Source: Escherichia phage pEC-N1203-2Af.1. Taken from it: DNA of 64,000 nt. The stretch lies in sequence record OQ540978.1; one strand, 5' to 3'. The position numbers and the translations under genes are program-made. The notes beneath the pieces are model-generated. The model was not told the DNA's origin. It did not search any database and saw only the letters and a list, made by a program, of their open reading frames with translations. Below, one piece after another: positions 369-62,180 of this stretch. Position 1 is the stretch's first letter. Each line of letters opens with the position of its first letter.

Positions 369-577
369 TGAAAAAGATGTGGGCTATTCGTGTTGTTTGG
401 AATCATGAACAACACATGGGTAAAGATAATATCAAACTGTTTAACACTCGTAAAGATGCTCGTATTGCTAAGAAAGAATTGAAGAGTCTGATCGGAACAG
501 TCAAACGTGCTAACATACATCGTTGGATTGAATTCTCAGAAGGTACTTGTATGCTATCTCGGAGTGTTTACTACTAA
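368..577 (+). CDS. hypothetical small protein (tandem paralog 3)
   Basis: 69-aa ORF; start overlaps previous stop; NTRKDARIAKKELK motif. Confidence 0.45.
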   Translation: MKKMWAIRVVWNHEQHMGKDNIKLFNTRKDARIAKKELKSLIGTVKRANIHRWIEFSEGTCMLSRSVYY

Positions 578-780
578 TGAAACTATTTGAGGATTTAAAA
601 ATCGGGGATGTTTTCGTAGTTGAAGGAGGTTTTGTCTTAACAAAAACCACAGAGACAGAAGCGGAATTTCCAGACGCACCAAACGTTGGAAAAATAAAAC
701 ACTTCCCTGATTGTGAAACTTTCACAGAAGAAGAATTCAAGCAACTATTCAGAGATAAGCCCAGAGAGGTTTTGATCTAA
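577..780 (+). CDS. small protein of the GDVF paralog family
   Basis: Start at internal ATG 577 (TAATG overlap with upstream stop); MKLFEDLKIGDVFVVEGG matches the family motif. Confidence 0.5.
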   Translation: MKLFEDLKIGDVFVVEGGFVLTKTTETEAEFPDAPNVGKIKHFPDCETFTEEEFKQLFRDKPREVLI

Positions 781-804
781 TTGGTAGTAGATATGGTAAC
801 TCTC

Positions 805-814
805 AAATGTATAT
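805..814 (+). promoter_or_regulatory. candidate phage-sigma (late/middle) promoter motif AAATGTATAT
   Basis: One-mismatch variant of the TAATGTATA motif, 39 nt upstream of the ATG at 853. Confidence 0.3.
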
Positions 815-852
815 AGAGTACAATAAGAATTTGTATTTTACAGGAGAGAGTT

Positions 853-1182
853 ATGTTAGATTTGAGTAAAGTGGCCCCGCCCACTGAAGAGATTACAAAA
901 TCCAAGGTGATGCAACAGTTTTATCATCGTGATATGCTTGGTCGCTTTATCAAGAATCGTGATGTTGTTGCTTGGTCTATTGGTAATCAGGGATATCTGT
1001 TGAAGGTTCTTCAGGTTACAGGTTCAACTGCTAAGCGAGTTAAGGTGTATGACCCTGAAATGGGGCGTTCTAAGTCAGTAGACCCACAGAACTGCATCGT
1101 AATTACCCAGCAGGTAATGGATAATATTGCACGTAACGTTGCTAACTCAGTTGAACTTGATGGAGAAAACCCAAATGCATAA
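853..1182 (+). CDS. hypothetical protein
   Basis: 109-aa ORF with ATG start; no recognisable motif. Confidence 0.45.
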   Translation: MLDLSKVAPPTEEITKSKVMQQFYHRDMLGRFIKNRDVVAWSIGNQGYLLKVLQVTGSTAKRVKVYDPEMGRSKSVDPQNCIVITQQVMDNIARNVANSVELDGENPNA

Positions 1183-1738
1183 GAATGTCTTTGATTTACC
1201 TGAGATTGGTCGTGCCGACTATAATATGTTAGACCGGTCTGAGCTTTCAATCTCTCGCCTTGAAACGATGCAAGGAATGATTAGCGGAAACAGCCTAGAA
1301 CACATCCTGAGCTGCTTACAAGCTAACATGGAACTCTTGCATATCAAAGCTAAAAACTACCACTGGAACGTCTCTGGTGCAGGATTTCAGGGTGTTCATG
1401 GTATGTTTGATGAGCTGGAAGATTACGCACGACAAGTAGGAGATCGTATTGCTGAACGTATGCGTTACCACTGTGTTAAAGTGGACGCTACAGCAGCCAA
1501 TTATCTTTCTCATGCTTGGTTCTCAGAGGGTAATGCTGACCTAGACATGGACGGTATGCTCTCTGATATGTGCATGACCTTGATGTGTATTATTGAGAAG
1601 ATGGATGAGTTTGATGGTGATTTAGCCACTTATCCAGTTGATCAGAGTATGCTTCAAGAAATAAATGAAGGTCTTGGCAAGTATTGCTACTTCGTCAAGA
1701 GCAACATGTCCCACTCAAGTGGTGATGTGTCTTACTAA
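1175..1738 (+). CDS. Dps-like (ferritin-fold DNA-binding) protein
   Basis: Start moved to internal ATG 1175 (GGAG upstream); KNYHWNVSGAGFQGVHGMFDELEDYARQVGDRIAERM resembles the Dps signature (HWNV.G..F..LH...EE.Y ... IAERI) as recalled. Confidence 0.55.
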   Translation: MHKNVFDLPEIGRADYNMLDRSELSISRLETMQGMISGNSLEHILSCLQANMELLHIKAKNYHWNVSGAGFQGVHGMFDELEDYARQVGDRIAERMRYHCVKVDATAANYLSHAWFSEGNADLDMDGMLSDMCMTLMCIIEKMDEFDGDLATYPVDQSMLQEINEGLGKYCYFVKSNMSHSSGDVSY

Positions 1739-1799
1739 AAACCTCCGCCCTGTCTCCTAACCCGAGGTGGGGCGAACTTATTTATAAGGATATAGATAT

Positions 1800-1979
1800 A
1801 TGTTATCAGCAATCGTATGGGGTATTTGGGCTATCTTTATTGGTGGTGGTATTTATTGGGCTTCTGGTAAGCTTATTGAAGAGACCCCTGATAAGAAAGG
1901 TGAGATTCAAACCGCATCAACCATTATGGTTATTGTAGCTGTTGTTATCCCATTCCTGCTTCACCTACTGACCGCATAA
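1800..1979 (+). CDS. small membrane protein (two predicted TM helices)
   Basis: 59-aa ORF below the track cutoff, translated by hand; AAGGA upstream; very hydrophobic. Confidence 0.3.
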   Translation: MLSAIVWGIWAIFIGGGIYWASGKLIEETPDKKGEIQTASTIMVIVAVVIPFLLHLLTA

Positions 1980-1988
1980 GGTTCTTAA

Positions 1989-2159
1989 ATGAAGGACGAA
2001 TATAAAGCCCACACGGTGATTGTTTGTCAGTGTGTGATGGCATTAGGTGTTACTAAAAAGGTAGCTGAGGATTTAGCCAAAGCTCAAGGGTACAAAGATT
2101 ACATTGTAATCCCTACCACTAAGCGCCACCTTGAAGAATTTGTTAATGAGGGTTGTTAA
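1989..2159 (+). CDS. hypothetical small protein
   Basis: 56-aa ORF translated by hand; fills the gap before the redoxin gene. Confidence 0.25.
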   Translation: MKDEYKAHTVIVCQCVMALGVTKKVAEDLAKAQGYKDYIVIPTTKRHLEEFVNEGC

Positions 2160-2434
2160 TGTCTAAAGTAATTAAGTTTTATAGTGATCAGTGTGCTCCA
2201 TGTAAAGCAATGGCTCCTACCTTTGAGAAGGTTGTTAAGGAGTTTGATGTAGAAGTAGAAGAGATTAACATCCTTGAGGGTGATGGTCGTGAGCAAGCTG
2301 TTAAGTATGGTGTACGAAGCATTCCTGCTTTCGTTGTGCCTGACCGTAATAGTGGTGCACACTATAGCCTCTCTGGTATGCAAACCGAAGCAAACCTGAA
2401 AGCATTTTTGGATACAGCTTTAGGTGTTAACTGA
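2159..2434 (+). CDS. thioredoxin/glutaredoxin-fold redoxin (CxxC)
   Basis: SKVIKFYSDQCAPCKAM: CxxC near the N-terminus of a ~90-aa protein. Confidence 0.6.
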   Translation: MSKVIKFYSDQCAPCKAMAPTFEKVVKEFDVEVEEINILEGDGREQAVKYGVRSIPAFVVPDRNSGAHYSLSGMQTEANLKAFLDTALGVN

Positions 2435-2903
2435 TAAGATAAAAGAAGACCTAGCATATGACCCTGATACTGGAATCTTTAGGTGGAAGAACACTAAAGG
2501 TCGTAGAATATCAGGGAATATTGCTGGGTGTGTCTCAACATTAGGTTACAGGTATATCTATTATGAAGGAAAATCTTACAGAGCGTGTCGGTTAGCTTGG
2601 TTTTTCTCTTACGGAAAGATGCCTGAGTTTGAGATTGATCATATCAACCAGATTAAACTGGATGACTCTCTTAAAAATCTAAGAGATGTTGACCCATCTA
2701 CAAACTGTCATAACAGAAAACAATATAACAGAGCCGGAAAAGCTGGAAAGCTCCCAATGGGTGTTTACATCAGAGAGACGGCTAGTGGCACAAAATTCAG
2801 AGCTATCATCGGAGTTAATGGAAAGACTAAGCATTTAGGGACTTTCCATACTCCAGAGGAAGCAGAGATTGCTTATAACAAGGAGAAGTTGAAGTATGAA
2901 TGA
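2424..2903 (+). CDS. HNH homing endonuclease with AP2-like DNA-binding domain (free-standing)
   Basis: EIDHINQ...NLRDVDPSTNCHNRK (HNH) and GVYIRE...FRAIIGVNGKTKHLGTFHTPEEAEIAY (AP2-like); GTG start overlaps redoxin stop. Confidence 0.65.
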   Translation: MLTDKIKEDLAYDPDTGIFRWKNTKGRRISGNIAGCVSTLGYRYIYYEGKSYRACRLAWFFSYGKMPEFEIDHINQIKLDDSLKNLRDVDPSTNCHNRKQYNRAGKAGKLPMGVYIRETASGTKFRAIIGVNGKTKHLGTFHTPEEAEIAYNKEKLKYE

Positions 2904-3552
2904 ACAATTGCAAGCAACATTGATTGAAGCTATGGGTAGTGATAAAACTGTTGTTAATGCTGCAAGGGTTTCTTTTGGTGTTGTTCGAGAAGGTGATTTG
3001 AATGATCGTGATACTCGGCTGATTAATTTCTTAGCTAGAGAGAAACATTGCACCCCGTTCCGTCATCCACAAGTATCCTTTCGCTGTAAGGCTCCAATTG
3101 CAATCGCTCGTCAACTACAGAAGCATCAGGTTGGATTCTCGTGGAACGAAATGTCCCGGCGGTATAAAGATGGAGCAGTTGAAGTCTTCATCCCTAAAGA
3201 GATTTTTGCGAGACCTTCGGACCTCCATGCAGGTTCAGGGGTTCAACTCATCGATGGAGAACGAGCTGAAGCATTGATGTTGATTAACGATGCATATGAA
3301 GCTTCTCTAGCAGCATATGACAAGTTGATTGAATTCGTTGCACCAGAGCAAGCCCGATTTGTTCTTCCTCAGGGAATGATCACTGAGTGGGTGTGGACTG
3401 GTTCTTTATATGGCTGGTTTGAGTTGTGTCGTCAGCGACTCTCCTCTCACGCTCAATACGAAGTTCGAGTATTTGCTCAATCTCTGGATGAAGAGATGGC
3501 TAAACTCTACCCAATCTCGTGGGCAGCTCTGAAGAAAACTTTGGAGAATTAA
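2896..3552 (+). CDS. thyX: flavin-dependent thymidylate synthase ThyX (divergent signature)
   Basis: AARVSFGV, HCTPFRHPQVSFRCKAPIAIARQ and S.RRY align to ThyX as recalled; the RHR position reads KHQ. Confidence 0.65.
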   Translation: MNEQLQATLIEAMGSDKTVVNAARVSFGVVREGDLNDRDTRLINFLAREKHCTPFRHPQVSFRCKAPIAIARQLQKHQVGFSWNEMSRRYKDGAVEVFIPKEIFARPSDLHAGSGVQLIDGERAEALMLINDAYEASLAAYDKLIEFVAPEQARFVLPQGMITEWVWTGSLYGWFELCRQRLSSHAQYEVRVFAQSLDEEMAKLYPISWAALKKTLEN

Positions 3553-3554
3553 AA

Positions 3555-3776
3555 ATGGCTAGTAGAAGTATTTGGATTCTGAGTCGTTTTGAAGAGACAG
3601 ATAGAGGGGAGCACGCAGAAGTGCTTTGCTCTTTCATTAGATACCCCACAAAGCAACAGCTTGAAGATGCTGGAGTAGAAATAAATCTTTCTCAATCTCT
3701 TTTTGATAAAAAGATTTCCAAGTTAACAGCCCCATTCTTTGGTTATTATTACACACTTGAGAGTTGGAGCTACTAA
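3555..3776 (+). CDS. hypothetical protein
   Basis: Start moved to ATG 3555 just after thyX stop. Confidence 0.4.
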   Translation: MASRSIWILSRFEETDRGEHAEVLCSFIRYPTKQQLEDAGVEINLSQSLFDKKISKLTAPFFGYYYTLESWSY

Positions 3777-3947
3777 TGAATGATTCTTGTTTGGAGAATT
3801 AATGTTGGAAGAAGATGATGATGTGTTCTGCACCAAGTGTGAGATGACAGTTGATGATGCATATGACCCAAGTGTAGAAATTTGCCCTTGTTGTGGAGTA
3901 TGTGAATATTGCTGTTCCCACAACTCAGAGGATTAGCAGGAGAAAAG

Positions 3948-4133
3948 ATGGAAAAGAAAGTCTGTAGCTTCTGTAAGAAAGAGAAGCCTATCGCCAACTT
4001 CAAACCCAACCCTGTGACGGGTCTGTCTCATGTTATGTGTCACTCTTGTAGGATATATCTTGAAACAAAGCACACCATTAACAGGTTGCATTATTATCAC
4101 CCAACAACATTCAAATTTAAGGTTGTGAAATGA
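3948..4133 (+). CDS. hypothetical Cys-rich (zinc-ribbon-like) protein
   Basis: MEKKVCSFCKK...CHSC; start chosen at internal ATG. Confidence 0.35.
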   Translation: MEKKVCSFCKKEKPIANFKPNPVTGLSHVMCHSCRIYLETKHTINRLHYYHPTTFKFKVVK

Positions 4134-4459
4134 TTGACAGTAATACATTTAGGACTTCAAATGGAAGTGAGATAAGTCCCGCTGAAGTAATTAATCGGCA
4201 TAGAAGGCAATTGATCATCCATTCCTATTTGTATTACTGGTTGGATGACCCTATCTGGTCTGATGATAAATGGCAACAAGTTGCTAATGATTTGGTTGAG
4301 TTGCAATCCTTGTATCCAGAGCCTACCGGAGTGTTTGACAATGAGTTCAAAGATTGGGATGGTTCTACAGGGATGCATCTCCCACACAATGAGGCTGTTG
4401 CTTGTATGGCGACAGCTGTTTACAGGATTCATAAAGATATGAACCATGAAGTGCTCTAG
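4130..4459 (+). CDS. hypothetical protein resembling the N-terminal Ia domain of NAD-dependent DNA ligase
   Basis: RRQLIIHSYLYYWLDDPIWSDDKWQQVANDLVELQSLYPEP compared with LigA N-terminus recalled from memory; no adenylation domain present. Confidence 0.4.
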   Translation: MIDSNTFRTSNGSEISPAEVINRHRRQLIIHSYLYYWLDDPIWSDDKWQQVANDLVELQSLYPEPTGVFDNEFKDWDGSTGMHLPHNEAVACMATAVYRIHKDMNHEVL

Positions 4460-4631
4460 ATGTGAAGGAACAAACCTTCATTTAAGTAACAAGGTTATCA
4501 GAGAGCTTGCCAAAGGCTCTCCAACCAAAGGGAAGAACAAACGATTTACTAACGTCAGGGTTTATACAGCAATCTGTAAAGACTGCTTAACTACTGAATG
4601 TCATTACGAAGAAATTGGAGAGCGTAAATGA
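4446..4631 (+). CDS. hypothetical zinc-ribbon protein
   Basis: CSRCEG...CKDC motif pair in 61 aa. Confidence 0.4.
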   Translation: MKCSRCEGTNLHLSNKVIRELAKGSPTKGKNKRFTNVRVYTAICKDCLTTECHYEEIGERK

Positions 4632-5371
4632 GTCGTCGTCAATCACGGAAAGAATCACGGAAAGACCTTCGTCGGGAAGCACTTGTCACTCGTAAGGGTA
4701 AGCGCGAGTTTGAAGAGGTGGTTTTAGCAAAGCCTGTAGTCCCTCAGAACCAGTTCCAGTCTGAACTGCTCAATGCTATCAAGACTAAACAAGTTGTGTT
4801 CACAGACGCTCCTGCGGGCTGTGGTAAGACCTTTGTAATCACTTCCACAGTTATTGATGCACTGAAGAGTGGTAAGATTCAGAAGATTATCCTGAGTCGT
4901 CCTTCAGTTGGTATGGGCAATTCTCTTGGGTTGCTTCCGGGAGGAATGCGTGAGAAGTTTGAACCTTACCTAATGCCTATCATTGATGTTATTACTCAGC
5001 GATATGGTAAAGGGTTCTATGAATGCCAGCTCGGTAATAGTAACATTGAGTTTGTACCTCTGGAATATCTCCGTGGTCGTTCTTTCAATGATGCTATTGT
5101 CATCGTAGATGAGTTCCAGAACACCACCAAAGATGAAGCCTTCTCAATCATGACTCGATTGGGAGAAACTTCTCAATTGTTCTGCATGGGTGATACTAAC
5201 CAGCATGATATGCGTGGTCGTGAGAGTGGTCTTACTTGGGCTACTAACTTTATTGATGAACATGATCTGTATGAGTTCGCTGAGATTGTAGACGGCGAAT
5301 CAGATGACATTGTTCGTTCTGGTTTCTGTAAAGCCATTGTTAAAGCTATGGAAAAGGAACAAGAGAAGTGA
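4628..5371 (+). CDS. phoH: PhoH-like ATPase
   Basis: Walker A FTDAPAGCGKTF and Walker B IVIVDEF; typical PhoH size. Confidence 0.8.
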   Translation: MSRRQSRKESRKDLRREALVTRKGKREFEEVVLAKPVVPQNQFQSELLNAIKTKQVVFTDAPAGCGKTFVITSTVIDALKSGKIQKIILSRPSVGMGNSLGLLPGGMREKFEPYLMPIIDVITQRYGKGFYECQLGNSNIEFVPLEYLRGRSFNDAIVIVDEFQNTTKDEAFSIMTRLGETSQLFCMGDTNQHDMRGRESGLTWATNFIDEHDLYEFAEIVDGESDDIVRSGFCKAIVKAMEKEQEK

Positions 5372-5553
5372 AAGTAGCTCTAGTTATCCGAGATTGTGGT
5401 GATGGTTCAGCAACCATCGACTTCTACAAAAATATCGAACGAGCGTGCTTTGAGTGTGAAGAGTTCAATGAAGACACCTGCATGAATGATGGAGAACCTA
5501 CTATCATTGATGTTCCTGATGATTTTGTACCACCGGGAGGGTGGAGTGAATAA
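5368..5553 (+). CDS. hypothetical protein
   Basis: 61-aa ORF coupled to phoH stop. Confidence 0.4.
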   Translation: MKVALVIRDCGDGSATIDFYKNIERACFECEEFNEDTCMNDGEPTIIDVPDDFVPPGGWSE

Positions 5554-5734
5554 CACTCAAGAGTTAGTGATAGAAGAGATTAAAGCTCAGATAGTTGATA
5601 AGCTCTCTATCAGGGTTGATTCTAAAGACACTAAATGCTCTGGTATACTGAAAATAGAACTTCTTTACAATGGAGAAGTTATTTCCTTTGATGAGGTATA
5701 TGCCTCTGATATTAAATACTTAGCAGAGTTTTAA
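5546..5734 (+). CDS. hypothetical protein
   Basis: GTG start with GGGAGGG RBS at 5535-5541; overlaps upstream stop. Confidence 0.3.
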   Translation: MNNTQELVIEEIKAQIVDKLSIRVDSKDTKCSGILKIELLYNGEVISFDEVYASDIKYLAEF

Positions 5735-5743
5735 TAGCATCCA

Positions 5744-5752
5744 TAATGTATA
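5744..5752 (+). promoter_or_regulatory. candidate phage-sigma promoter motif TAATGTATA
   Basis: Exact TAATGTATA 37 nt upstream of ATG 5789. Confidence 0.4.
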
Positions 5753-5788
5753 CTCCTTAGTGTACACTGATATATTAAGGAGTTCTAA

Positions 5789-6103
5789 ATGGCAGATCAT
5801 GTAGGAAAAAGAGATTATGCGCAAGAAAGACGTACCGCAATTGCCCGTGGTGAGACAGGCGTTGGGAGCAAGAGCGGAGATGCTCAGCGCCACCGTGCAC
5901 GTCGCATCGTTGAAAAGCGCGATGGAAAAGCTGCTGTCAGAGGTAAAGATGTTGGACACAAACGAGCTGTCAAGTCTGGAGGCTCTAATGCGTCAAGCAA
6001 CTTACGTGTTGAATCAGTCAGCTCAAACCGTTCAAACGGCGGCAAAAGTGGTGATCGAGCTGGAAAAGCAGCTGGAGCACGCAAAGGAGCTTTAAGCTCG
6101 TAA
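5789..6103 (+). CDS. highly basic Arg/Gly/Lys/Ser-rich protein
   Basis: AAGGAG RBS 8 nt upstream; codon third positions AT-rich like the rest of the genome, unlike the overlapping frame at 5817. Confidence 0.5.
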   Translation: MADHVGKRDYAQERRTAIARGETGVGSKSGDAQRHRARRIVEKRDGKAAVRGKDVGHKRAVKSGGSNASSNLRVESVSSNRSNGGKSGDRAGKAAGARKGALSS

Positions 6104-6113
6104 AGAGGTTATC

Positions 6114-6407
6114 GTGTCAGCAGAAACAAAAAGATGTACGATTCACACTTACTGTAAATTCTGTAAAGCAGATGGTGTAAAAAGGGTTGCAACTTTAATG
6201 ACCAAGTATTCTCCAAGTAGAGGTTATAGAGATCACTATAAGCATTACTCTTGTAGTGACCATTCTCACTTATTAGAGGATACTGACCCAAACCGAACAA
6301 GAAGGGAGTCTAACATCGACTTGAGAGCTACTCTTAAGGAAATGAAAAACAACTCCCGAAACAACCATTATACTGAAGCTGACTACCAAACTTGGCTTCG
6401 TCTCTAG
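6114..6407 (+). CDS. hypothetical protein
   Basis: 97-aa ORF, GTG start with AGAGG upstream. Confidence 0.4.
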   Translation: MSAETKRCTIHTYCKFCKADGVKRVATLMTKYSPSRGYRDHYKHYSCSDHSHLLEDTDPNRTRRESNIDLRATLKEMKNNSRNNHYTEADYQTWLRL

Positions 6408-6410
6408 AAC

Positions 6411-6442
6411 AAAGGCTGCCTGATTAGGTGGCCTTTTCTTTT
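6411..6442 (+). terminator. rho-independent terminator
   Basis: AAAGGCTGCC / GGTGGCCTTT stem followed by TCTTTTAT. Confidence 0.5.
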
Positions 6443-6476
6443 ATATAAACCAAATTAAACTTCTTAGGTAATAAAT

Positions 6477-6728
6477 ATGTCTATTGTAAAATCTGTAAAT
6501 ATCATTGATGTAATGTCTAACAATCGTATGGTTAAATGGAAATTTACCAATAACCACGGCATTGCTAATATCATTGCAAACCAGATTGGTCATAACCCAA
6601 AAACAGCTCGTACTAACGTAATCCTCCGTGGGGCTGATGGTAAATTCATTTCCTACAAGAATAAAGGTGTAGAGAAAGAATTCCGTGTTGCAGTAGAAAA
6701 CCTCATCCCATTCCCTAAAGGAGTTTAA
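6477..6728 (+). CDS. hypothetical protein (tandem paralog pair, copy 1)
   Basis: KTARTNVILRGADGKFISYKNKG...ENLIPFPKGV matches the next ORF. Confidence 0.5.
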   Translation: MSIVKSVNIIDVMSNNRMVKWKFTNNHGIANIIANQIGHNPKTARTNVILRGADGKFISYKNKGVEKEFRVAVENLIPFPKGV

Positions 6729-6729
6729 T

Positions 6730-7014
6730 ATGAATAAGTTAGCTATGGTTCAGATTCGAGACACATACCCAAATCGCCCAGATCAGAAACCACGTACTTG
6801 GTCTTACCTACTGGCTGAGAGTAAGACTATCAACAAATATTTTGTAGAGATTGGTTGTATCCCAACCAGTATTACTTTACTTCCTCATAAAACAGCTAGA
6901 ACTCATGTAATGTTACGAGATAGTAAAGGTAAGTTTATCTCTTATCGAGATGCTCGAATCAATAGTGAAATCAAAGCTGCTATGGAATCTTTAACACCAT
7001 TCCCAAAAGGTTAA
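6730..7014 (+). CDS. hypothetical protein (tandem paralog pair, copy 2)
   Basis: KTARTHVMLRDSKGKFISYRD...ESLTPFPKG. Confidence 0.5.
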   Translation: MNKLAMVQIRDTYPNRPDQKPRTWSYLLAESKTINKYFVEIGCIPTSITLLPHKTARTHVMLRDSKGKFISYRDARINSEIKAAMESLTPFPKG

Positions 7015-7017
7015 ATA

Positions 7018-7176
7018 ATGAAAGAATATGTTTACGTAGGACAGTGCTGGTTTGGTGATGAATATGAAGCCGGTTACAGCGTTGTGAAAGCTTTTAAGTC
7101 TGAAGAAGATGCCAAGGCATGGGTCTGGAAAGATGATGTTGGCGAGAGAACTTACGTTAGAATAGAGGTGGAGTAG
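7018..7176 (+). CDS. hypothetical small protein
   Basis: 52-aa ORF translated by hand. Confidence 0.3.
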   Translation: MKEYVYVGQCWFGDEYEAGYSVVKAFKSEEDAKAWVWKDDVGERTYVRIEVE

Positions 7177-7177
7177 A

Positions 7178-7600
7178 ATGCCATTACCAGCTAGACACCA
7201 AAACCGTTTCTTAGTTCTCAAGTGGGATGATATCGAAATGAATCTCACTGAACATGAACTGGATTTGTTCCATGAGTTATTGTCAGAGATTCGCTCTGGT
7301 ATCCCTGATCGTCAGTATGTAGTTATCAGTGATAAACACCCTCAAGAGTTCGAAGAAGCTTGGGGCATGAAGCTGGCTTACATCCAGAGAGCTATCAGAG
7401 AAAGAGAAGAGGTTGCTAACCAAAGGGTTGTGGCTCATTTAGTACGAGAGCAACCTCGTGAAGCTAGGGCTAACCATGCACCACCTCCACCTACTCCTCG
7501 GATAGTTGTTAACGGGGCGGTTAGGGCTTACAGTTATGAAGCTACCGTGTTAGATGTGATAGAAGATAACCAAGCATTTACAGATTTACTTTACCAATAA
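7178..7600 (+). CDS. hypothetical protein
   Basis: 140-aa ORF. Confidence 0.45.
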   Translation: MPLPARHQNRFLVLKWDDIEMNLTEHELDLFHELLSEIRSGIPDRQYVVISDKHPQEFEEAWGMKLAYIQRAIREREEVANQRVVAHLVREQPREARANHAPPPPTPRIVVNGAVRAYSYEATVLDVIEDNQAFTDLLYQ

Positions 7601-7616
7601 TTTAAAGGAGTATAAA

Positions 7617-9308
7617 GTGAGCAACCCGGACGCTCTCCCATTTTTGACAGAGATGACTGTCGCTGATATAATCTCTAAGCAAGCGAAGCACGGAGTGAGT
7701 TTCAACCGAAGAAATGCTCGGTGGTATGTTCACCTCCTTAAAGAGATTATTGTTAATATTGACAAAGAACTGATTCCTCTCTTACCTAAGATGAGATTAG
7801 ATGGCTCTACTTATATGAAGCCATTTAAGAAGTCTGGAGCTTTACAGAAGTGGCCTCAAGCCTATTGTGATAGGGTTGGCCTTAAGAGGGAAGATATTGG
7901 TGGAGCATTCACCTGTGTTGAGTACGTAGACTTTGACCCATCGAAAGATGCACGAGTTAAAGAAGCCCTTATGGATGAGGGTTTTCTTCCTCCAGAGTTT
8001 AACGTATCAAAGAAACCTTGGAATACTTTTGAAATCAAGAAAGATATAAGAAAGTATGGAACATATCAAGCGTGGTATTCAGCTTGGATACAAGGTAATG
8101 CTAAAAAGAAACAGACAGCCGAGATGGTTGACGCTGATATTAGGAAGTTCTTAGAGAAGCATTTTCGGTTTAAAACTAAGAACTACATGAAGGCTTATGT
8201 ATTTGGTTTAGGTTTAAATCCTAACCGACGTAGACCTATCACTTTTGATGAGATTAAGATAGCACTAGCTACCTCAAACAAGTGGCCTACAGCTCCTACA
8301 AACCTCGAGGAGACTCTTGAAGAAGGATTAGGGGGTGAGCTAGGGAGTGTCGGAAGTTTGCTTAAGAGACGCGTTGTAGCGGCTCACAGGCTAGGTCTTA
8401 TTAGTGGACTTATAGCAAAGGAGCGCGAAGATGGTAAACTTTCGGCAGAAGCTAACAGCTGCGCTACGCCGACTTTTCGATTCAAACATCGTATCGTGGT
8501 TAATATTCCCTCCCGTGGTTTGTTTGGTCATGAGTGTCGCAGTTTGTTTGAATCTGACTGTAACTCAGATGATGATCACTCTCGTCCTTTCGTTATTACT
8601 AACGTTGTTCCTGATGGTTGTTATATACGAAAAGGTACTAACGTAATTTATGAGAAAGGTAAGCCGGGGAAGAAAGACAAACCTGTAGGTGCTTACAAAT
8701 ATTACATACCCGCTGGTAAAGAAGTATTCTTAGGGTATGATGGTTCTGGATTAGAATTGCGTATGCTTGCACACTACCTCATTAAAGAGTGTAGGGATAT
8801 GCTTGCTGAAGCAATCGAAGAGAATAATCCAGCTAAGAAAGCTCTGGCAGAGCGTGGTTTAGCTTCTGCTATTATGTATCGTGATATTCTCCTTGAAGGT
8901 GATATCCACTCCCACAACCAGAAACTTGCTGGTCTTCCTACTCGTGACAACGCTAAGACGTTTATCTACGCATTCAACTATGGTGCTGGTGATGCTAAGC
9001 TCGGTTCAATTGTAGGTGGTGGGGCTGACGAAGGTTCAGTGATGCGAGCACGTTTCTTGGCAGAGAACCCATGTATTGCAATCCTCATTGATCGTATGAC
9101 AGAGAAAGCTGCTCAAGGGTACTTGATTGGTGTTGATGGTCGTAAGATTACAATGAGACGAGATGCCACTGGTAAAGTTATGGTTCATAAAGCACTTAAC
9201 ACTCTCCTGCAATGTGCTGGTGCTGTTGTTATGAAATATGCTATGATGTTCCTTAACAAGTGGATTGAGAAGGATAGAGTTCGCTGTGCTAAGGTAATTG
9301 ACATGCAT
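7617..9308 (+). CDS. DNA polymerase, family A, exon 1 (ends inside motif C)
   Basis: GTG start after AAGGAG; motif A GYDGSGLELRMLAHY, motif B RDNAKTFIYAFNYGAG; frame continues ...VIDMH then runs into intron. Confidence 0.75.
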
Positions 9309-9915
9309 AAACTTCATTGTGCATGTAAAAGTTGGTGAACTCGGTGAAACCCGACCATTAAGTTGAGGGCAATACCGAGCTAAGCTATTAGGAGGTGATA
9401 TGGCTAAGAAAGATCTAGTGCTAGAAACAACTAGCACAGGATGTATCATCCCTATCTCACACAAATTAAATAAAGATGGCTACTTTCGAAAAGTGATAAA
9501 TGGCAAATGGGTCATGTATCATAGGTATGTCATGGAAGAGAAGTTTGGAAGTATTCCTGACGGCTACGAAGTTAATCACAAATGCAAGAATAGGGCATGT
9601 TGTAACACTGATCATCTAGAGATATTAGAAGGTAGTGCACATGCCATAGAATCAAATACTGGTAGAAACAGAGAAAGACAGGATGCTGCTAAAGAGTTCT
9701 GGCTTAATAATGAATGTACTGGTGTTGCTCTTGCAGAAAGATTTGGTGTGAGCTTTGGAATCGCTTGTAGATGGATTCGAAAGTGGAAAGTGTAGAGACT
9801 ATCCTGCGGGAGTAGGGGGTTAACAGGGAAACCCTCGAAGCGCCAACAACAGCAAATTAGCTATGCTGTTATGATATAGTCCGATACCCGAAGTAATTTG
9901 GGAATAACATAAATG
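9309..9915 (+). mobile_element. group I intron carrying an HNH homing endonuclease ORF
   Basis: Exon 1 ends in T; exon ATGCAT (9303-9308) can pair with intron GTGCAT (9319-9324) giving a U-G pair at the splice site; intron ends in G at 9915; joined exons read MHDEGQF. Confidence 0.7.
9400..9795 (+). CDS. HNH homing endonuclease (intron-encoded)
   Basis: GYEVNHKCKNRACCNTDHLE; lies wholly inside the proposed intron. Confidence 0.7.
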   Translation: MAKKDLVLETTSTGCIIPISHKLNKDGYFRKVINGKWVMYHRYVMEEKFGSIPDGYEVNHKCKNRACCNTDHLEILEGSAHAIESNTGRNRERQDAAKEFWLNNECTGVALAERFGVSFGIACRWIRKWKV

Positions 9916-10068
9916 GATGAGGGCCAGTTCTCAGTGAACCGTAACGATGTACAGAAACTCAAAGAACACACTGAGCTTTGCGTTAAGAAAGCTGGTGAGT
10001 ATTTGAACATGGAATGTCCTCTGGCCTCTGATTGTCAGATTGGACTTAACTGGATGCATACACACTAA
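9916..10068 (+). CDS. DNA polymerase, family A, exon 2 (C-terminus)
   Basis: DEGQF...CQIGLNWMHTH resembles the Pol I C-terminus (HDE ... G.NW..AH); no start codon of its own. Confidence 0.7.
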   Translation, partial: DEGQFSVNRNDVQKLKEHTELCVKKAGEYLNMECPLASDCQIGLNWMHTH

Positions 10069-10137
10069 ATTCAGAACTGAAAGATTGAAACACAAATGAA
10101 CTAGTCTTATTGATTAGTTCATAATAAGGAGATTGAA

Positions 10138-10266
10138 GTGGAAGAGATGCCATCGGATTGGTGTTATCGTCAGAGCGCCATCTGTAATGAACAAGGACGT
10201 CCTGATGAAGCTGAGTTTTATTTAGAACTTGCTGAGCTGTGGAAAGAACGAGAGGAGAAAGAGTGA
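10138..10266 (+). CDS. hypothetical small protein
   Basis: GTG start 7 nt after AAGGAG; 42 aa. Confidence 0.3.
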   Translation: MEEMPSDWCYRQSAICNEQGRPDEAEFYLELAELWKEREEKE

Positions 10267-10433
10267 TGGAAAGTATCTACCGTAAGCCACCTCCGAAGTA
10301 TAACATCCTTTACACTGACGCAACAGGTGAATTTAGAAGTGTGTTAGTTTATACGGATGAAGAACGAAACCAAATGGTTGCTGCTATTGAAGCCAATGGC
10401 GGTACAATCATGCGAATTTATAACATAACATAA
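10266..10433 (+). CDS. hypothetical small protein
   Basis: ATG overlapping upstream stop (TGATG). Confidence 0.35.
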   Translation: MESIYRKPPPKYNILYTDATGEFRSVLVYTDEERNQMVAAIEANGGTIMRIYNIT

Positions 10434-10442
10434 GGAATATCA

Positions 10443-10619
10443 ATGACTGCTTCTGAATTAAAAGAAACCCTGTCCACTGAAGAAGGTAAAGCTTTCTTCC
10501 TATCTCAAGTACACTCTATGGGTAAAGATGCCCTTCGCCAAGCAGTCGTTGAGCTTACTGGTGTAGTGATTGACTTGAGTATCGAAAATGAAGCACTTGA
10601 AGCTAAAGTGAATAGTTAA
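10443..10619 (+). CDS. hypothetical small protein
   Basis: 58-aa ORF translated by hand; AAGGA upstream. Confidence 0.35.
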   Translation: MTASELKETLSTEEGKAFFLSQVHSMGKDALRQAVVELTGVVIDLSIENEALEAKVNS

Positions 10620-10625
10620 ATAAAA

Positions 10626-10649
10626 AGCTGCCTTAGGGCGGCTTTTCTT
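10626..10649 (+). terminator. rho-independent terminator
   Basis: AGCTGCC-TTAG-GGCGGCT then TTTTCTT. Confidence 0.55.
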
Positions 10650-10665
10650 GTCTAAAGGACTTGAC

Positions 10666-11058
10666 ATGAATATTGGTTTAGATTATGATGACACTTACAC
10701 CTCAGATAAGGAGCTGTGGCGCTCTGTGGTGGCATTAATGCAAGCCAAAGGTTATGATGTACGTTTTGTAACTTATCGCTTTGCAGAGCCTAATGGGTAC
10801 GATAATCACGACATTAAGATTGATGCAGAGTGTTTGCAGATTCCTATCATCTTTTGCAATGGTGTTCAGAAAGATGACGTATGTCGCCAGTTAGGTTTCT
10901 TTGTAGATATCTGGATTGACGACTTCCCTGTTGGAATCCCTAAGAAAGACCACCTAGATGGGATGCTGAAGGGTGTAAGACTTAATGACCTTAGGGCAGC
11001 ACCTCCTGTAGAAATAGCCGCTCCTGTGTACTCTGAAGAGCCTCTGGTGATTCGATGA
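10666..11058 (+). CDS. putative HAD-like hydrolase (possible nucleotidase)
   Basis: N-terminal GLDYDDTYT fits HAD motif I (DxDxT); start moved to ATG 10666. Confidence 0.4.
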   Translation: MNIGLDYDDTYTSDKELWRSVVALMQAKGYDVRFVTYRFAEPNGYDNHDIKIDAECLQIPIIFCNGVQKDDVCRQLGFFVDIWIDDFPVGIPKKDHLDGMLKGVRLNDLRAAPPVEIAAPVYSEEPLVIR

Positions 11059-11222
11059 AGAAATATAGTGTATGGTTTAATGAAGTAGAAGAAGGTTTTG
11101 ATGAAGTTGGTGGATGGGTTAATATCCTAAACACTGACGATATAGAAGAGGCCGAGAAGTGCGCCCTAAACTACAACTCTGGATATTATGAAAGAAATTG
11201 GGAATACGAGGAAATTAAATGA
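11055..11222 (+). CDS. hypothetical small protein
   Basis: 55-aa ORF translated by hand; overlaps upstream stop. Confidence 0.3.
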   Translation: MKKYSVWFNEVEEGFDEVGGWVNILNTDDIEEAEKCALNYNSGYYERNWEYEEIK

Positions 11223-11362
11223 TTTGGATTCACACCTATAAGATTGGAAAGAAAGAGATCACCGCTGTACATCACTCTGAAGAAAGTGCAAATGCTTCTC
11301 AGGAAGTATTGAAAGGTGAAGTTAAAGTGTACGCTGAAGTTAAAGCTAAATCTTGGAGCTAA
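11219..11362 (+). CDS. hypothetical small protein
   Basis: 47-aa ORF with ATGA overlap. Confidence 0.3.
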   Translation: MIWIHTYKIGKKEITAVHHSEESANASQEVLKGEVKVYAEVKAKSWS

Positions 11363-11373
11363 GGAGATGTAGA

Positions 11374-11568
11374 ATGATTAGTAAAATGCTAGGAGATAAC
11401 CCTTTCTGGTCGGTTGATACAGATAAACTCGATGAAGGCATGATGATCGATTTTGATGATTTATTAGAACTACAGAAAGTGGTGAATCAATTAGTCTCTG
11501 ACGAACAGAGTCGTTTGTTACAGGAATCTCTCAGTGGAGACTTTGAATGTCTAGGATGTACTATTTAA
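11374..11568 (+). CDS. hypothetical protein
   Basis: Start moved to ATG 11374 (AAGGAG 8 nt upstream). Confidence 0.4.
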   Translation: MISKMLGDNPFWSVDTDKLDEGMMIDFDDLLELQKVVNQLVSDEQSRLLQESLSGDFECLGCTI

Positions 11569-12894: not shown

Positions 12895-12915
12895 TAACTC
12901 TCCTTGTTATAGCTT

Positions 12916-50714: not shown

Positions 50715-50742
50715 TTGACAACTGGAAAGCCTAACCTATAAT
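50715..50742 (+). promoter_or_regulatory. strong sigma70 promoter P1
   Basis: TTGACA, 16-nt spacer, TATAAT; AAATACTTgaaaaAGTATTT palindrome just upstream. Confidence 0.7.
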
Positions 50743-50885
50743 GAGCTTAGAAAGACAAGATGACCGCTCAAGTAACTCCCTAGTGAGTGAAGCAAGTCAG
50801 ACGCAGGCAGGCGGATACCATTCCCCGGAATAATCGCAGGTTATCTGATTATCAAATGGTGTTATGGGAGCCATACAGCTTTAAA

Positions 50886-50900
50886 CGCTCTTTAAAAATC
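50886..50900 (+). promoter_or_regulatory. boxA-like element (in P1 transcript)
   Basis: CGCTCTTTAAAAATC about 136 nt downstream of P1. Confidence 0.45.
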
Positions 50901-50933
50901 AGGCTAGAAAGTGAAAAATACTTGAAAAAGTAT

Positions 50934-50961
50934 TTGACAACTGGAAAGCCTAACCTATAAT
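50934..50961 (+). promoter_or_regulatory. strong sigma70 promoter P2
   Basis: TTGACA, 16-nt spacer, TATAAT (duplicate of P1). Confidence 0.7.
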
Positions 50962-50993
50962 GAGCACAAGTCAGCGATGACGTGAAACATCCC

Positions 50994-51013
50994 CGCTCTT
51001 TAAAAATTTATCA
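50994..51013 (+). promoter_or_regulatory. boxA-like element (in P2 transcript)
   Basis: CGCTCTTTAAAAATTTATCA, near-identical to the rrn boxA GCTCTTTAACAATTTATCA as recalled. Confidence 0.5.
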
Positions 51014-59261: not shown

Positions 59262-59510
59262 ATGACAGCTCATTATTGGAATACAAAGAAGCTTCTTGAA
59301 GAGATGGCTGGGGGTAGTAGAGTACAACTAATCTCTATGCTTCGAATGGATGCTCGCTCTTTACGCTTTCAAGTGAAGATCGGTAACTTCAGTGATGGTC
59401 TTTATTATACCTTGAAGGAAAGGATTAAGAAGACTCACTTCATCATGTACGGACTCAAACCGAGAACGTACGTTAACTACATGTATTGGGATACATGCTA
59501 CGATAATTGA
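59262..59510 (+). CDS. hypothetical protein
   Basis: Start at ATG 59262 after AAGGAG. Confidence 0.45.
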   Translation: MTAHYWNTKKLLEEMAGGSRVQLISMLRMDARSLRFQVKIGNFSDGLYYTLKERIKKTHFIMYGLKPRTYVNYMYWDTCYDN

Positions 59511-59517
59511 GGGTGTT

Positions 59518-59739
59518 ATGATATTCGAAGCCAAGCAAACATTGCCGGTAGTTCCTTTGTCTACACTTCTTAGTGGGAGTGCTTTTAGACATGATAACGG
59601 TTTTTGGATTAAAGGAAACCAAGAGGTTGGAGGATATATCACCTGCATCAATATCTGCAATGGTGTTGTTGAGGTAAAGCGTCCAGCCGCTGAAGTAACT
59701 CCTCAACCCAATGCAAAGGTTGTAGGTTTGGTATATTAA
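59518..59739 (+). CDS. GDVF-family small protein (variant motif)
   Basis: LSTLLSGSAFRHDNGFWIK...ICNGVVEV; close paralog of the next ORF. Confidence 0.5.
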   Translation: MIFEAKQTLPVVPLSTLLSGSAFRHDNGFWIKGNQEVGGYITCINICNGVVEVKRPAAEVTPQPNAKVVGLVY

Positions 59740-59748
59740 GGAACTTAT

Positions 59749-59970
59749 ATGAAATTAGATTCTAAACAATCCCTTAAAACTGTTGAACTGTCCACACTGC
59801 CAAACGGAAGTATCTTTGGTCACGATAAACACTTCTGGATTAAAACAGACTACTTGAACGATGGGTATATCACCTGTGTCAACCTTTGGAATGGTTCAGT
59901 GGATGGTTATCGCCCTAATGCAAAGGTAATCCCTCAGCCTGATGCAAAGGCTACAGGTTTAGTTTACTAA
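59749..59970 (+). CDS. GDVF-family small protein (variant motif)
   Basis: LSTLPNGSIFGHDKHFWIK...LWNGSVDG. Confidence 0.5.
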   Translation: MKLDSKQSLKTVELSTLPNGSIFGHDKHFWIKTDYLNDGYITCVNLWNGSVDGYRPNAKVIPQPDAKATGLVY

Positions 59971-59979
59971 GGAGTTCAT

Positions 59980-60153
59980 ATGAGCTGTTATGGTGGCGGT
60001 GAAGTATATGATGACGATGACATGGAATCCAATGGTACATGCCCTGACTGTGGGTGTGAGACGTTTGATGGTGTGTCAGTATATCCTGCCTGTAGTTATT
60101 CACCAGTGATCTGTAAAACATGCGGAGATCAACCTTGTGATCAGTCCTGTTAG
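59980..60153 (+). CDS. Cys-rich small acidic protein
   Basis: 57-aa ORF translated by hand; AAGGAG RBS; 9 Cys. Confidence 0.35.
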   Translation: MSCYGGGEVYDDDDMESNGTCPDCGCETFDGVSVYPACSYSPVICKTCGDQPCDQSC

Positions 60154-60370
60154 TATCTTGATTGTCTACTTAATAGGTATGGTGATAGTTTCAGCTCTGA
60201 TAAAATTCCTCGATGTAAAAGGTAGTGTCGAGTTCAGAGGGTGGAATAACGAACCAAACTTATCAAAGATAGCGATTATGGTTTTTCTATGGCCCATCGT
60301 TGCTGTGATTCTTATATCTCTTGTTTTGTGGGCATGGCTGTGGGATATGATTCTTCCCGCAAGAAAGTAA
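60137..60370 (+). CDS. small membrane protein (two TM helices)
   Basis: Two hydrophobic helices separated by a charged loop. Confidence 0.45.
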   Translation: MISPVSILIVYLIGMVIVSALIKFLDVKGSVEFRGWNNEPNLSKIAIMVFLWPIVAVILISLVLWAWLWDMILPARK

Positions 60371-60586
60371 GAGCTTATCGTTAAGGATTCTTACGAGAGT
60401 CCTTTGAGATAGGACTTCAGATCTCCTATCAAACTAACATTCACGTAACTAGCCCATAAGGGCGTTACCCTTTAATAACCCAGCCCACTAAGGGGGCGGG
60501 AGTTTAGTGCTGGATGAGCATAACGCTTATTCCTACAAAGGCAACCGATTGTTAGATCTTACATGCAACATTAATTAATAGGATAA

Positions 60587-60616
60587 GGGAGGATTCGTCC
60601 CCTCCCCCTATTTTAT
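60587..60616 (+). terminator. rho-independent terminator
   Basis: GGGAGG-ATTCGTCC-CCTCCC then CCTATTTTATT. Confidence 0.55.
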
Positions 60617-60665
60617 TGAATCTTTATCTAAGCAAGTCTTATATAAATGTTTAATTGGAGGATGT

Positions 60666-60977
60666 ATGAAAGCTCGAAGAACTATATGGACTCCGATACA
60701 GATTGAAAATCTTCGGAGACTAATCAAAGAGTACTCTGTTCAAGAGGTTGCTCAGATTATGAATGTAACGGAGAATGCAGTTAATACAGCTTGTACTAAG
60801 TTCGGTATATCAAGAGCTGTACTCCGAGTTAAGTGGTCTAAAGAAGAAGACCAGTTCCTTATCCGTAATGCTGGGTTTATGTCTATTCAGAGAATGGCTG
60901 ACATGCTCGGTAGAAGTTATGCTGCTGTACAGAACAGAGCATGTATGCACCTTAACATTAGTCTAAAACTTAAATAG
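60666..60977 (+). CDS. putative DNA-binding protein with two HTH-like repeats
   Basis: Internal repeat: W..IQIENLRRLIKEYSVQEVAQIMNVTENAV and WSKEEDQFLIRNAGFMSIQRMADMLGRSYAAV. Confidence 0.45.
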   Translation: MKARRTIWTPIQIENLRRLIKEYSVQEVAQIMNVTENAVNTACTKFGISRAVLRVKWSKEEDQFLIRNAGFMSIQRMADMLGRSYAAVQNRACMHLNISLKLK

Positions 60978-60985
60978 GAATCAAT

Positions 60986-61231
60986 ATGAAGATCATCCCA
61001 AAGAAAAAGGATAATACGGTACGATTGGAAACAATCATTCCCGGAAACCCTTTCGTGGTTCAGCACGGAAGTGCCTCTCCTCAATATTATATGAGGGTTG
61101 AAAATGCATCTGGTAACATCCGTATAGCCAGTGGTTGGATTCCTGTAGTGAATCTATCCACTGGAGTATTAGCTGTTAAAGGTGCTGATGAACAGGTTGA
61201 AATGATTCGTATGTCAGTGGTTCAGGAGTAG
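60986..61231 (+). CDS. GDVF-family small protein (divergent)
   Basis: IIPGNPFVV ... VNLSTGVLAVKGAD. Confidence 0.45.
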   Translation: MKIIPKKKDNTVRLETIIPGNPFVVQHGSASPQYYMRVENASGNIRIASGWIPVVNLSTGVLAVKGADEQVEMIRMSVVQE

Positions 61232-61233
61232 GT

Positions 61234-61476
61234 ATGAGCACAATACATATCAAAGTTCATCATGAAGAAGAAAAGAAACTCTTTGTTAAAGATCTATCGA
61301 TCGCTGATATCTTCACTTTAAAAGAAGATGATAATCAGATCATCTATTTGATGATGCCTGTGACTGGAGGGTATCGAAGGGCTGTTTGTTTGGGTACAGG
61401 TGTGCCCCGTCCTGTTGCTGATACTCTTGAAGTTGGTGAGAAGTTTAGTAAGGCTGAAATTATCTTAACTCCATAG
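61234..61476 (+). CDS. GDVF-family small protein (divergent)
   Basis: LSIADIFTL ... CLGTGVPRPV. Confidence 0.45.
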   Translation: MSTIHIKVHHEEEKKLFVKDLSIADIFTLKEDDNQIIYLMMPVTGGYRRAVCLGTGVPRPVADTLEVGEKFSKAEIILTP

Positions 61477-61484
61477 GAAAATAA

Positions 61485-61601
61485 ATGAGACGTAAAGCAT
61501 ATTCTTATGACGATATGATTAACCAGAAAGGCTTCGGTCAACGACAGCCTGATGGTTCAATTATCTGGTTCGTAAATGGACAGAAAAAGGTAGCTAAATA
61601 A
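61485..61601 (+). CDS. hypothetical small protein
   Basis: 38-aa ORF translated by hand; AGGAAAA upstream. Confidence 0.25.
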   Translation: MRRKAYSYDDMINQKGFGQRQPDGSIIWFVNGQKKVAK

Positions 61602-61707
61602 GCCCTCTTCTCTCCTCCTTTTAGTACTATGACGCCTCTCTGTGGGCGGCCCAATTTGCGTAGGGAATTCCCTCTACGCAGCCATAACTTTTTAAGGAAT
61701 TTCCCCT

Positions 61708-61941
61708 ATGTCTAAAGTAAGCGCAATCGATGCAATCCGTCAACCGTTCCAGTTCCAATCCAAATCAACTCAAACCTTCAGTGAGCCTAAGCAAATTCGC
61801 TTGGGTGGCACAGAGAAGACTGTATTTGATCTGGCTAAAAACAAAAGCGTTACCGTAGTTGATGGTGGCACTCTGGTTAACGTTTCCCATCGCATCCGCA
61901 CTGGCAAAACTGCCAAAGATCGTGCCAAGAAAGGTGAGTGA
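61708..61941 (+). CDS. hypothetical protein
   Basis: 77-aa ORF. Confidence 0.45.
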   Translation: MSKVSAIDAIRQPFQFQSKSTQTFSEPKQIRLGGTEKTVFDLAKNKSVTVVDGGTLVNVSHRIRTGKTAKDRAKKGE

Positions 61942-62180
61942 TGAAAATAGGGAAACCGGCTGATGGTATAATAAAGATTAGTGATATATCTATTGGGGAA
62001 GTTTTCTCAGCAGAGCACTTTTCAAGTTACTACATGAAAATCCCTAACACTAAAGTAGAGGGTTGCATCATTCCTGCCAACGCAGTTAACCTGAACACAG
62101 GCCATCTGTCTGCATTCAAACCTGATTTACAGGTTACTGAAATCCGAGATGCCTATCTCGCCTTTGGTGGGGATAAATAG
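61938..62180 (+). CDS. GDVF-family small protein
   Basis: ISDISIGEVFSA ... VNLNTGHLSAF. Confidence 0.5.
   Translation: MMKIGKPADGIIKISDISIGEVFSAEHFSSYYMKIPNTKVEGCIIPANAVNLNTGHLSAFKPDLQVTEIRDAYLAFGGDK

Follow-up and report, generated by a model that had tools for sequence, protein, structure and literature searches.

The 64,000-nucleotide window analysed here, from Escherichia phage pEC-N1203-2Af.1 (OQ540978.1), is a circularly permuted assembly of an Escherichia coli Kuravirus (phiEco32-like, Gordonclarkvirinae). It raises the question of whether a set of very small genes that resemble one another only faintly is a family at all and, if so, what such a family might do. An original prediction had grouped ten open reading frames (ORFs) of 67–85 amino acids (aa), named by their starts, as paralogues sharing an N-terminal G(D/N/E)(V/I)F motif and a downstream (N/I)L.(S/N/T)G motif (here NL.xG), and had proposed that they are diversified binders, for instance serving host takeover or anti-defence. 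Nine of the ten are homologous and have a predicted SH3-like beta-barrel fold, while the ORF at 577 is better placed elsewhere. The nine belong to a family that is very large across virulent phages and is not peculiar to this one.

The ten ORFs indeed lie on the + strand, each with a Shine–Dalgarno-like sequence. They are listed below with orthologues, the ratio of nonsynonymous to synonymous substitution rates among orthologues (dN/dS) where given, and the E value against a broad hidden Markov model (HMM) built from 129 relatives from elsewhere, mostly non-Kuravirus metagenomic sequences.

55887..56126, + strand: member 1, 79 aa, GTG start; same position as phi32_115; E 4.4e-17; GGAG Shine–Dalgarno sequence; 11-nucleotide (nt) overlap with the upstream ORF; first of a coupled trio
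56123..56380, + strand: member 2, 85 aa; phi32_114 orthologue (93% identical); E 2e-11; ATGA overlap with member 1; dN/dS 0.20; longer beta2–beta3 insert
56381..56599, + strand: member 3, 72 aa; phi32_113 orthologue (96% identical); E 3.6e-16; starts directly after the member 2 stop; the member modelled with AlphaFold2
57671..57895, + strand: member 4, 74 aa; phi32_109 orthologue (96% identical); E 1.6e-5; ATGA overlaps on both sides; dN/dS 0.09
59518..59739, + strand: member 5, 73 aa; KBNP1711 gp104 orthologue (89% identical); E 7.9e-14; 55% identical to member 6
59749..59970, + strand: member 6, 73 aa; phi32_104 orthologue (92% identical); E 4.8e-18; dN/dS 0.13
60986..61231, + strand: member 7, 81 aa; phi32_96 orthologue (91% identical); E 7.7e-16; dN/dS 0.17
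61234..61476, + strand: member 8, 80 aa; 51% identical to phi32_95; E 6.4e-4; 2 nt after member 7; dN/dS 0.12
61938..62180, + strand: member 9, 80 aa, GTG start; KBNP1711 gp095 orthologue (91% identical); E 3.2e-18; GTGA overlap with the upstream ORF
577..780, + strand: doubtful ORF, 67 aa; N-terminal F-DL-x-GDVF hairpin motif only

Pairwise BLAST among the ten ORFs gave scattered links only, the nine members being about 15–55% identical to one another. Profile methods were applied to a test set of 1,880 sequences, comprising 376 six-frame ORFs of at least 40 aa from the window and 1,504 reversed or shuffled decoys (four sets). An iterative HMM search within the window joined seven ORFs (55887, 56123, 56381, 59518, 59749, 60986 and 61938), with 61234 and 57671 the next best and no decoy above either. 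Against the broad HMM the ten named ORFs were exactly the top ten of the 1,880 sequences: the seven core ORFs scored at E 2e-11 to 3e-18, 57671 at 1.6e-5, 61234 at 6e-4 and 577 at 5.5e-3, with the top decoy at about 1. The two divergent members, 57671 with INNP in place of the NL.xG motif and 61234 with ADIF replacing GDVF, are further tied in by intermediates. For 61234 these are phiEco32 gp95 (51% identical, HMM E 2e-11) and a YF01 relative (1.6e-8), and for 57671 phiEco32 gp98 (35% identical, HMM E 2e-7). No additional hidden family member was found in the window. When the family is defined by a full-length match of a 67–90 aa protein to a profile with an MKI strand, L-x-x-G-D-V-F, YYMK, NAVNL-x-TG and V-x-P-x-x-A-x-L, nine ORFs belong to it (E 3e-18 to 6e-4 against the distant-relative HMM). 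The proposed family of ten thus shrinks by one: alignment and profile searching unite nine ORFs at E 6e-4 or better, whereas 577 aligns over 18 N-terminal residues only.

The motifs themselves have statistical support. In the six-frame ORFs of 40 aa or more, the expectation for G[DNE][VI]F is 1.5 and the observed number 9, six of these falling at residue 19–20 of named ORFs; the remaining four named ORFs carry GSAF, GSIF, GNPF and ADIF. G20 and F23 are invariant in the seven core members and their orthologues and 99–100% conserved in the wider family, and L47 and G50 of the second motif are 89–95% conserved there. The second motif is, however, degraded in 57671 and missing from 577. The claim that copies often stand in tandem and are translationally coupled was borne out by 4-nt ATGA or GTGA overlaps at 56123, 57671 and 61938 and by gaps of 0–9 nt at 56381, 59518, 59749, 60986 and 61234. 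Further, the family ORFs are annotated as coding sequences (CDS) in related genomes. Orthologue dN/dS values of 0.09–0.52 indicate purifying and not obviously diversifying selection; on this sequence evidence the nine genes are therefore real, functional and under purifying selection.

The ORF at 577 differs in almost every respect. Its match to the family HMM is limited to residues 4–21 (FEDLKIGDVFVVEGGFVL) and scores 13.7 bits, with E about 0.005 in a small database. It has neither the NL.xG motif nor the N-terminal MKI strand, and its C-terminus is acidic and helical. Aligned together with its own relatives against the family by hhalign, it covers 21 columns at a probability of 77%. Over its whole length it matches phrog_2183 (E 6e-7), not the PHROGs groups of the family, and a relative that is 65% identical (P0276) has a precomputed PF26909 match. 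The F-DL-x-G-[DE]-VF hairpin is common to phrog_2183 and the nine-member family, but the rest of the 577 protein does not align. Its nearest relatives, at about 40% identity, are Klebsiella Sugarlandvirus (T5-like) proteins encoded beside a NinI-like phosphatase, and one protein in phage ECBP5. The ORF is absent from all 50,697 phage records, the closest Kuraviruses included, and is carried by metagenomic Kuravirus-sized contigs. In the window it forms an insertion between the phi32_69 and phi32_68 orthologues, in the middle-gene region. This placement, its absence from the phage records and its distant relatives suggest horizontal acquisition. AlphaFold2, with three sequences only, returned a predicted local distance difference test score (pLDDT) of 50, too low to be informative. 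By sequence, 577 is a member of another family (phrog_2183) and not of the nine-member one.

What do the nine proteins look like? The AlphaFold2 model of 56381, built on a 42-sequence alignment, has a pLDDT of 87.9 and a predicted template modelling score (pTM) of 0.74. It contains five strands (residues 22–25, 28–34, 41–46, 52–56 and 60–63) that are antiparallel and close into a barrel of about 60 residues, as expected of SH3-like small beta-barrels. On this model the family is predicted to be a five-strand SH3-like beta-barrel, and the fold class is clear. The nearest solved folds are EF-P/eIF5A domain I, uL2, the Tudor domains of CarD and UvrD, and Spt5 KOW, all of them alike at the level of the fold only. 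Foldseek against the PDB gave no match below E 1e-3, the top one being EF-P at 5.6e-3. SH3-like folds are widespread, and phages are known to carry small early genes in several copies.

Across the 129 distant members, the conserved columns are M1-K2-I3, F14, L17, G20, D21, V22, F23, Y29, Y30, M31, K32, A44, V45, N46, L47, T49, G50, F55, V61, P63, A67 and L69. They consist of hydrophobic core positions and turn residues with a few polar ones (D21, K32 and N46); among them there is no signature resembling a catalytic site. Nor is there a conserved basic or aromatic surface patch, the conserved aromatics being at sites in the strands where core residues usually sit. Substitutions within the orthologue groups of Kuraviruses cluster at profile positions 7–13, 26–28, 34–41 and 54–61. 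The C-terminal 10 or so residues (HMM positions 62–72) are nearly fixed within a paralogue group and different between groups, with tails such as ARLTNKVD, IPDAVITNKGK, MPRPDLxLTQK, PQPDAKxxGLVY, VEMIRMSVVQE and TEIKDAYLAFGGDK.

Neither Pfam nor NCBIfam nor the PDB sequences contain a match to the family, the sequence-profile matches in the PDB being at chance level (E>0.4). Several named families were compared directly. EF-P/eIF5A domain I bears a basic loop (PGKG) that carries a modified lysine. One of 108 members matches EFP_N (PF08207), at E 0.095, and hhalign puts the probability of a relation to E. coli EF-P at 0.8%, so membership in EFP_N was rejected. With EF-P/eIF5A domain I and uL2 there is no sequence-profile relation; the family lacks a conserved lysine loop, and its members stand alone whereas those domains are parts of a multi-domain factor. 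Membership in the CarD_TRCF_RID or UvrD C-terminal families was likewise rejected, with no Pfam match and only a generic likeness of fold. The phiEco32 protein gp79 is an 82 aa regulator of RNA polymerase (RNAP) that binds outside the RNAP clamp. As a candidate member it was discarded: it has no family motifs, and its gene (phiEco32 8602–8850) was recovered neither by the family HMM at E<0.1 nor by blastp with the ten ORFs. That gene falls in a part of the genome outside the window. Collectively, the family is outside every named SH3-like family.

Gauging how far the family reaches called for an exhaustive search. A word-indexed protein search returned close Kuravirus orthologues and few distant relatives, and tblastn with the HMM consensus and with N4 gp21 found almost nothing past close relatives, its reach being small because of the low-complexity filter and the divergence of the family. 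An exhaustive profile search of 1.84 billion cluster representatives, on the other hand, yielded 1,246 proteins at E<=1e-3, almost all of them standalone and 67–90 aa long. This total is slightly inflated by two evident false matches, P0124, an RCC1-repeat protein confirmed by Pfam that has a GDVF repeat, and P0133, a protein of 3,607 aa with no single matching stretch. Of the 145 matches listed beyond the word-indexed recoveries, 129 are 60–110 aa long, and the listed small matches are near full-length; about 11 two-domain fusions of 139–184 aa occur among the matches listed. All ten distant members whose origin was checked are metagenomic. The contigs of distant members carry long same-strand arrays of small ORFs without a Pfam match, and such arrays are typical of phage early regions. 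One metagenomic protein of 478 aa (P0163) has a SprT-like metallopeptidase domain followed by several small-barrel domains and is the sole fusion to a known domain that was seen; as a single case it was not taken as a functional lead.

Among predicted viral structures (BFVD), 20 matches were obtained at E<1e-3, nearly all of them uncharacterised phage proteins of about 70–105 aa, from Kuraviruses, N4, PaP3, Proteus Myduc, Erwinia Cronus, Serratia Hera and Klebsiella Seu621. Named phage proteins that match the family HMM over their full length include N4 gp21 (E 5e-18), LUZ24 gp7 (E 5.5e-11), PaP3 ORF65 (E 4e-8) and four proteins of Salmonella phage 7-11, namely gp112, gp131, gp110 and gp133 (E 1e-16 to 3e-6). 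These members are of the same size as those in the window and likewise lie in early or middle gene blocks. They are fewer per genome than the seven to nine of Kuraviruses: N4 and LUZ24/PaP3 have one or two, and 7-11 has four. No assigned function for them was found in the papers searched. The ORF at 56381 matches phrog_6570 end to end (E 2.9e-32). PHROGs 6570, 7431, 7832, 8365, 9955, 10911, 12612, 16423 and 34455, all of unknown function, cover the window members together with 106 of the 108 distant relatives. PHROGs thus divides the family into about nine anonymous groups and records neither the unity of the superfamily nor the Kuravirus copy number. The original prediction had left the family unrecognised, and rightly so, as it has no Pfam or NCBIfam model and no published function was found. 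Pfam, NCBIfam, PHROGs and the PDB sequences gave no named match that would link it to anti-defence or host takeover. No paper on the family or its expansion turned up in the literature searched, a body that leaves aside the original phiEco32 genome and transcription papers. The unity of the family, its breadth (N4 gp21, LUZ24 gp7) and its expansion to seven to nine copies in Kuraviruses appear to be undescribed so far.

How stable is the set of copies among close relatives? Five Kuraviruses were compared. Nine copies are present in phiEco32 (gp115, 114, 113, 109, 104, 98, 97, 96 and 95) and in KBNP1711, eight each in WFI101126 and Paul, and seven in YF01. The 56123, 59749, 60986 and 61234 types occur in all five, and two of the five have an orthologue of the 57671 type. 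KBNP1711 alone has the 59518 and 61938 types, which are absent from phiEco32, WFI101126, Paul and YF01. Further, in some Kuraviruses the trio's first and third genes have diverged strongly or given way to others.

The early setting of the genes comes from comparison with phiEco32. The region 55000–63000 of the window matches 111 phage records, the top ones being NJ01, XT18 and MN05 (94–95% identity), with phiEco32 at 91%; single genes of the window are identical to genes of FS2B, MN03 and DE5. The + strand of the window is the reverse complement of the phiEco32 record, and 55.9–62.2 kb corresponds to phi32_115 to phi32_92. In phiEco32 and its relatives these genes form the early temporal class, read by the host sigma-70 RNAP (PMC8948821, PMC9965538, PMC4281155). 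This assignment from the literature agrees with three promoters found by sequence match upstream of the block.

50715–51267, + strand: three sigma-70 promoters, consensus or near-consensus (12/12, 12/12 and 11/12), at 50715, 50934 and 51239, within 550 base pairs (bp)

These promoters face the early block with its nine family members and are probably the strong early promoters described for phiEco32 and SU10 (PMC4281155, PMC8948821). The family is accordingly spread through the early region for its nine members, but not for 577 with its middle-gene location.

As to what the family does, the reading we favour is that the nine proteins share a protein-binding scaffold that has diversified towards different targets in the host or its defences, a proposal plausible enough to work with although falling somewhat short of probable. 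Transcribed by the host sigma-70 RNAP, the proteins would be made within the first minutes of infection, each as a small non-enzymatic protein-binding module. The invariant G20, F23, Y29/Y30, L47, G50 and V61 would hold the barrel together, while specificity would be set by the variable N-terminal linker, the beta2–beta3 insert, the beta4–beta5 face and the paralogue-specific C-terminal tail. Each paralogue would then have its own host factor or defence protein to bind and to neutralise or redirect. Adjacent coupled copies may act as dimers, as the fused two-domain homologues of other phages hint. The idea of diversified binders acting in host takeover or anti-defence fits the predicted SH3-like scaffold, the confinement of conservation to core and turns with variable loops, the paralogue-specific tails, the presence or absence of copies between close phages, and the mixed isoelectric points (pI) of the nine members, which range from 4.9 to 9.2. 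In a screen of 13 early proteins of LUZ24, growth inhibition was caused by gp4, gp6, gp9 and gp11 only (PMC4635203). The family member gp7 was probably tested there and non-toxic; it is presumed to be among the 13 since the annotation has exactly gp1–gp13 as small early genes. A non-toxic gp7 would fit counter-defence, or an accessory or non-essential target, better than a general host shut-off.

A number of points weigh against this reading. The structural model is a prediction only, and no member has a known binding partner, phenotype or experimental structure. Gene-wide dN/dS is below 1, so that the orthologues give no direct indication of an arms race, and the variation in the loops may reflect no more than a lack of constraint. 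Among SH3-like barrels there are also binders of RNA and DNA (KOW, Tudor, PWWP and Sm), and three window members are basic (pI 9.0–9.2). The presence of gp7 among the 13 LUZ24 proteins is deduced from the annotation, the text of PMC4635203 being silent on it.

If the barrels were instead devoted to nucleic acids, as KOW, Tudor, PWWP and Sm-like domains are, they would bind the RNA or DNA of phage or host early in infection, for example to chaperone RNA, protect transcripts or modulate DNA structure, with paralogues differing in the sequence or structure they prefer. Many top fold matches are in fact nucleic-acid-associated SH3-like domains (uL2, Spt5 KOW, PWWP with single-stranded DNA, KIN17), and the three basic members would suit such a role. 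However, the wider family is mostly acidic, with a median pI of 5.25, 58% of proteins below 5.5 and 7% above 8, which argues against general nucleic-acid binding; the lack of a conserved basic or aromatic surface patch and of any sequence relation to the KOW or EF-P families points the same way, and we consider this account unlikely, if still a serious one. Likeness of fold could also suggest docking on the machinery by which the host transcribes or translates: the proteins would imitate the Tudor-like RNAP-interacting domains of CarD, Mfd and UvrD or domain I of EF-P, and so tune host RNAP or ribosomes during takeover, alongside the known phiEco32 factors gp79 and gp36. Kuraviruses are known to reprogramme the host RNAP (PMC12276001). 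The likeness is, however, generic and confined to the fold, with no PDB match at Foldseek E<1e-3 and the 0.8% hhalign probability against E. coli EF-P, whose PGKG loop corresponds to the most variable loop of the family. Moreover, nine paralogues with different tails are hard to square with one conserved docking site, and gp79 is unrelated and helical. Docking of this kind is decidedly improbable.

The most sceptical alternative, that the motif arose by chance or convergence in unrelated small ORFs or that the genes are decaying duplicates without function, can draw on the low pairwise identities (15–30%), on the GDVF hairpin of 577 outside the family, and on the RCC1-repeat protein with a GDVF repeat that scored in the exhaustive search. 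As an explanation of the family it is scarcely credible: full-length profile matches reach E 1e-11 to 1e-18 while the decoys stay at about 1 or worse, orthologues occur Kuravirus-wide at the low dN/dS given above, ribosome-binding sites are present throughout, related genomes annotate the genes as CDS, and the AlphaFold2 model is confident. It is contradicted for the nine members and stands for 577 only. Returning to the protein-binding scaffold, a bolder form of it would make the mini-barrel a general evolvable binder, a kind of 'mini-adaptor' with a fixed core, hypervariable loops and lineage-specific tails. Each copy would be aimed at a different defence or takeover target, adjacent copies would possibly form heterodimers, and Kuraviruses would hold an unusually broad counter-defence repertoire. 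This extension is an attractive thought that we regard as unlikely to hold in full.

Several other features of the window were observed alongside the family. The early block contains one tRNA gene, as in other Kuraviruses.

58867–58941, + strand: tRNA-Arg (anticodon TCT), inside the early block

An Rfam scan of 54300–62700 found nothing but this tRNA. Two gaps in the block are without a convincing gene, 56600–56957 (358 bp) and 57099–57497 (399 bp), and phiEco32 shares the first, between its gp113 and gp112. At 57295–57318 there is a terminator-like hairpin and at 57450–57466 a sequence resembling a tRNA T-arm, neither with an Rfam match. Two neighbouring small ORFs on the + strand, 58143–58312 and 58321–58530, both show, by eye, a zinc-ribbon-like C-x-H-[DE]-W ... 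C-[KR]-x-C pattern and may be a further small paralogue pair. According to the record annotations of PaP3, LUZ24, 7-11 and phiEco32, a module of glutamine amidotransferase, amidoligase, COOH-NH2 ligase and ATP-grasp genes follows the early block of small ORFs immediately downstream in Kuravirus, Bruynoghevirus and Moazamivirus, and members of the small-barrel family travel within this common early layout.

The middle region has small tandem genes of its own. The adjacent + strand ORFs at 168–368 and 368–577 (66 and 69 aa) are the phi32_70 and phi32_69 orthologues, are 30% identical to each other (E 8e-6) and resemble phi32_71. They represent a second, separate tandem small-protein family with a W...TR..AR..KK...Y-Y end. 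Another tandem duplication is seen in the adjacent middle-gene ORFs at 6477–6728 and 6730–7014 (+), with 56% identity over 41 residues (E 2e-14). Between the thioredoxin and ThyX genes, which are directly adjacent in phiEco32, lies an ORF of 159 aa at 2424–2903 (+) with an HNH-like signature by eye; it is probably a homing-endonuclease insertion.

The early regions of virulent phages are mostly unannotated, and in the well-studied phiEco32 and Kuravirus group some 50 small early genes can now be reduced by collapsing about nine of them into one fold family. The family, which takes in orphan genes of N4 and LUZ24 and about 1,250 metagenome sequence clusters, is therefore a single tractable object for structural and interaction screening, from which many hypothetical proteins could be annotated together. 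Should the proteins prove to be housekeeping binders of RNA or DNA, their interest would be ordinary. If they are true target-specific binders, they would offer a new source of small inhibitors of bacterial proteins and defence systems and an example of how a phage expands its repertoire.

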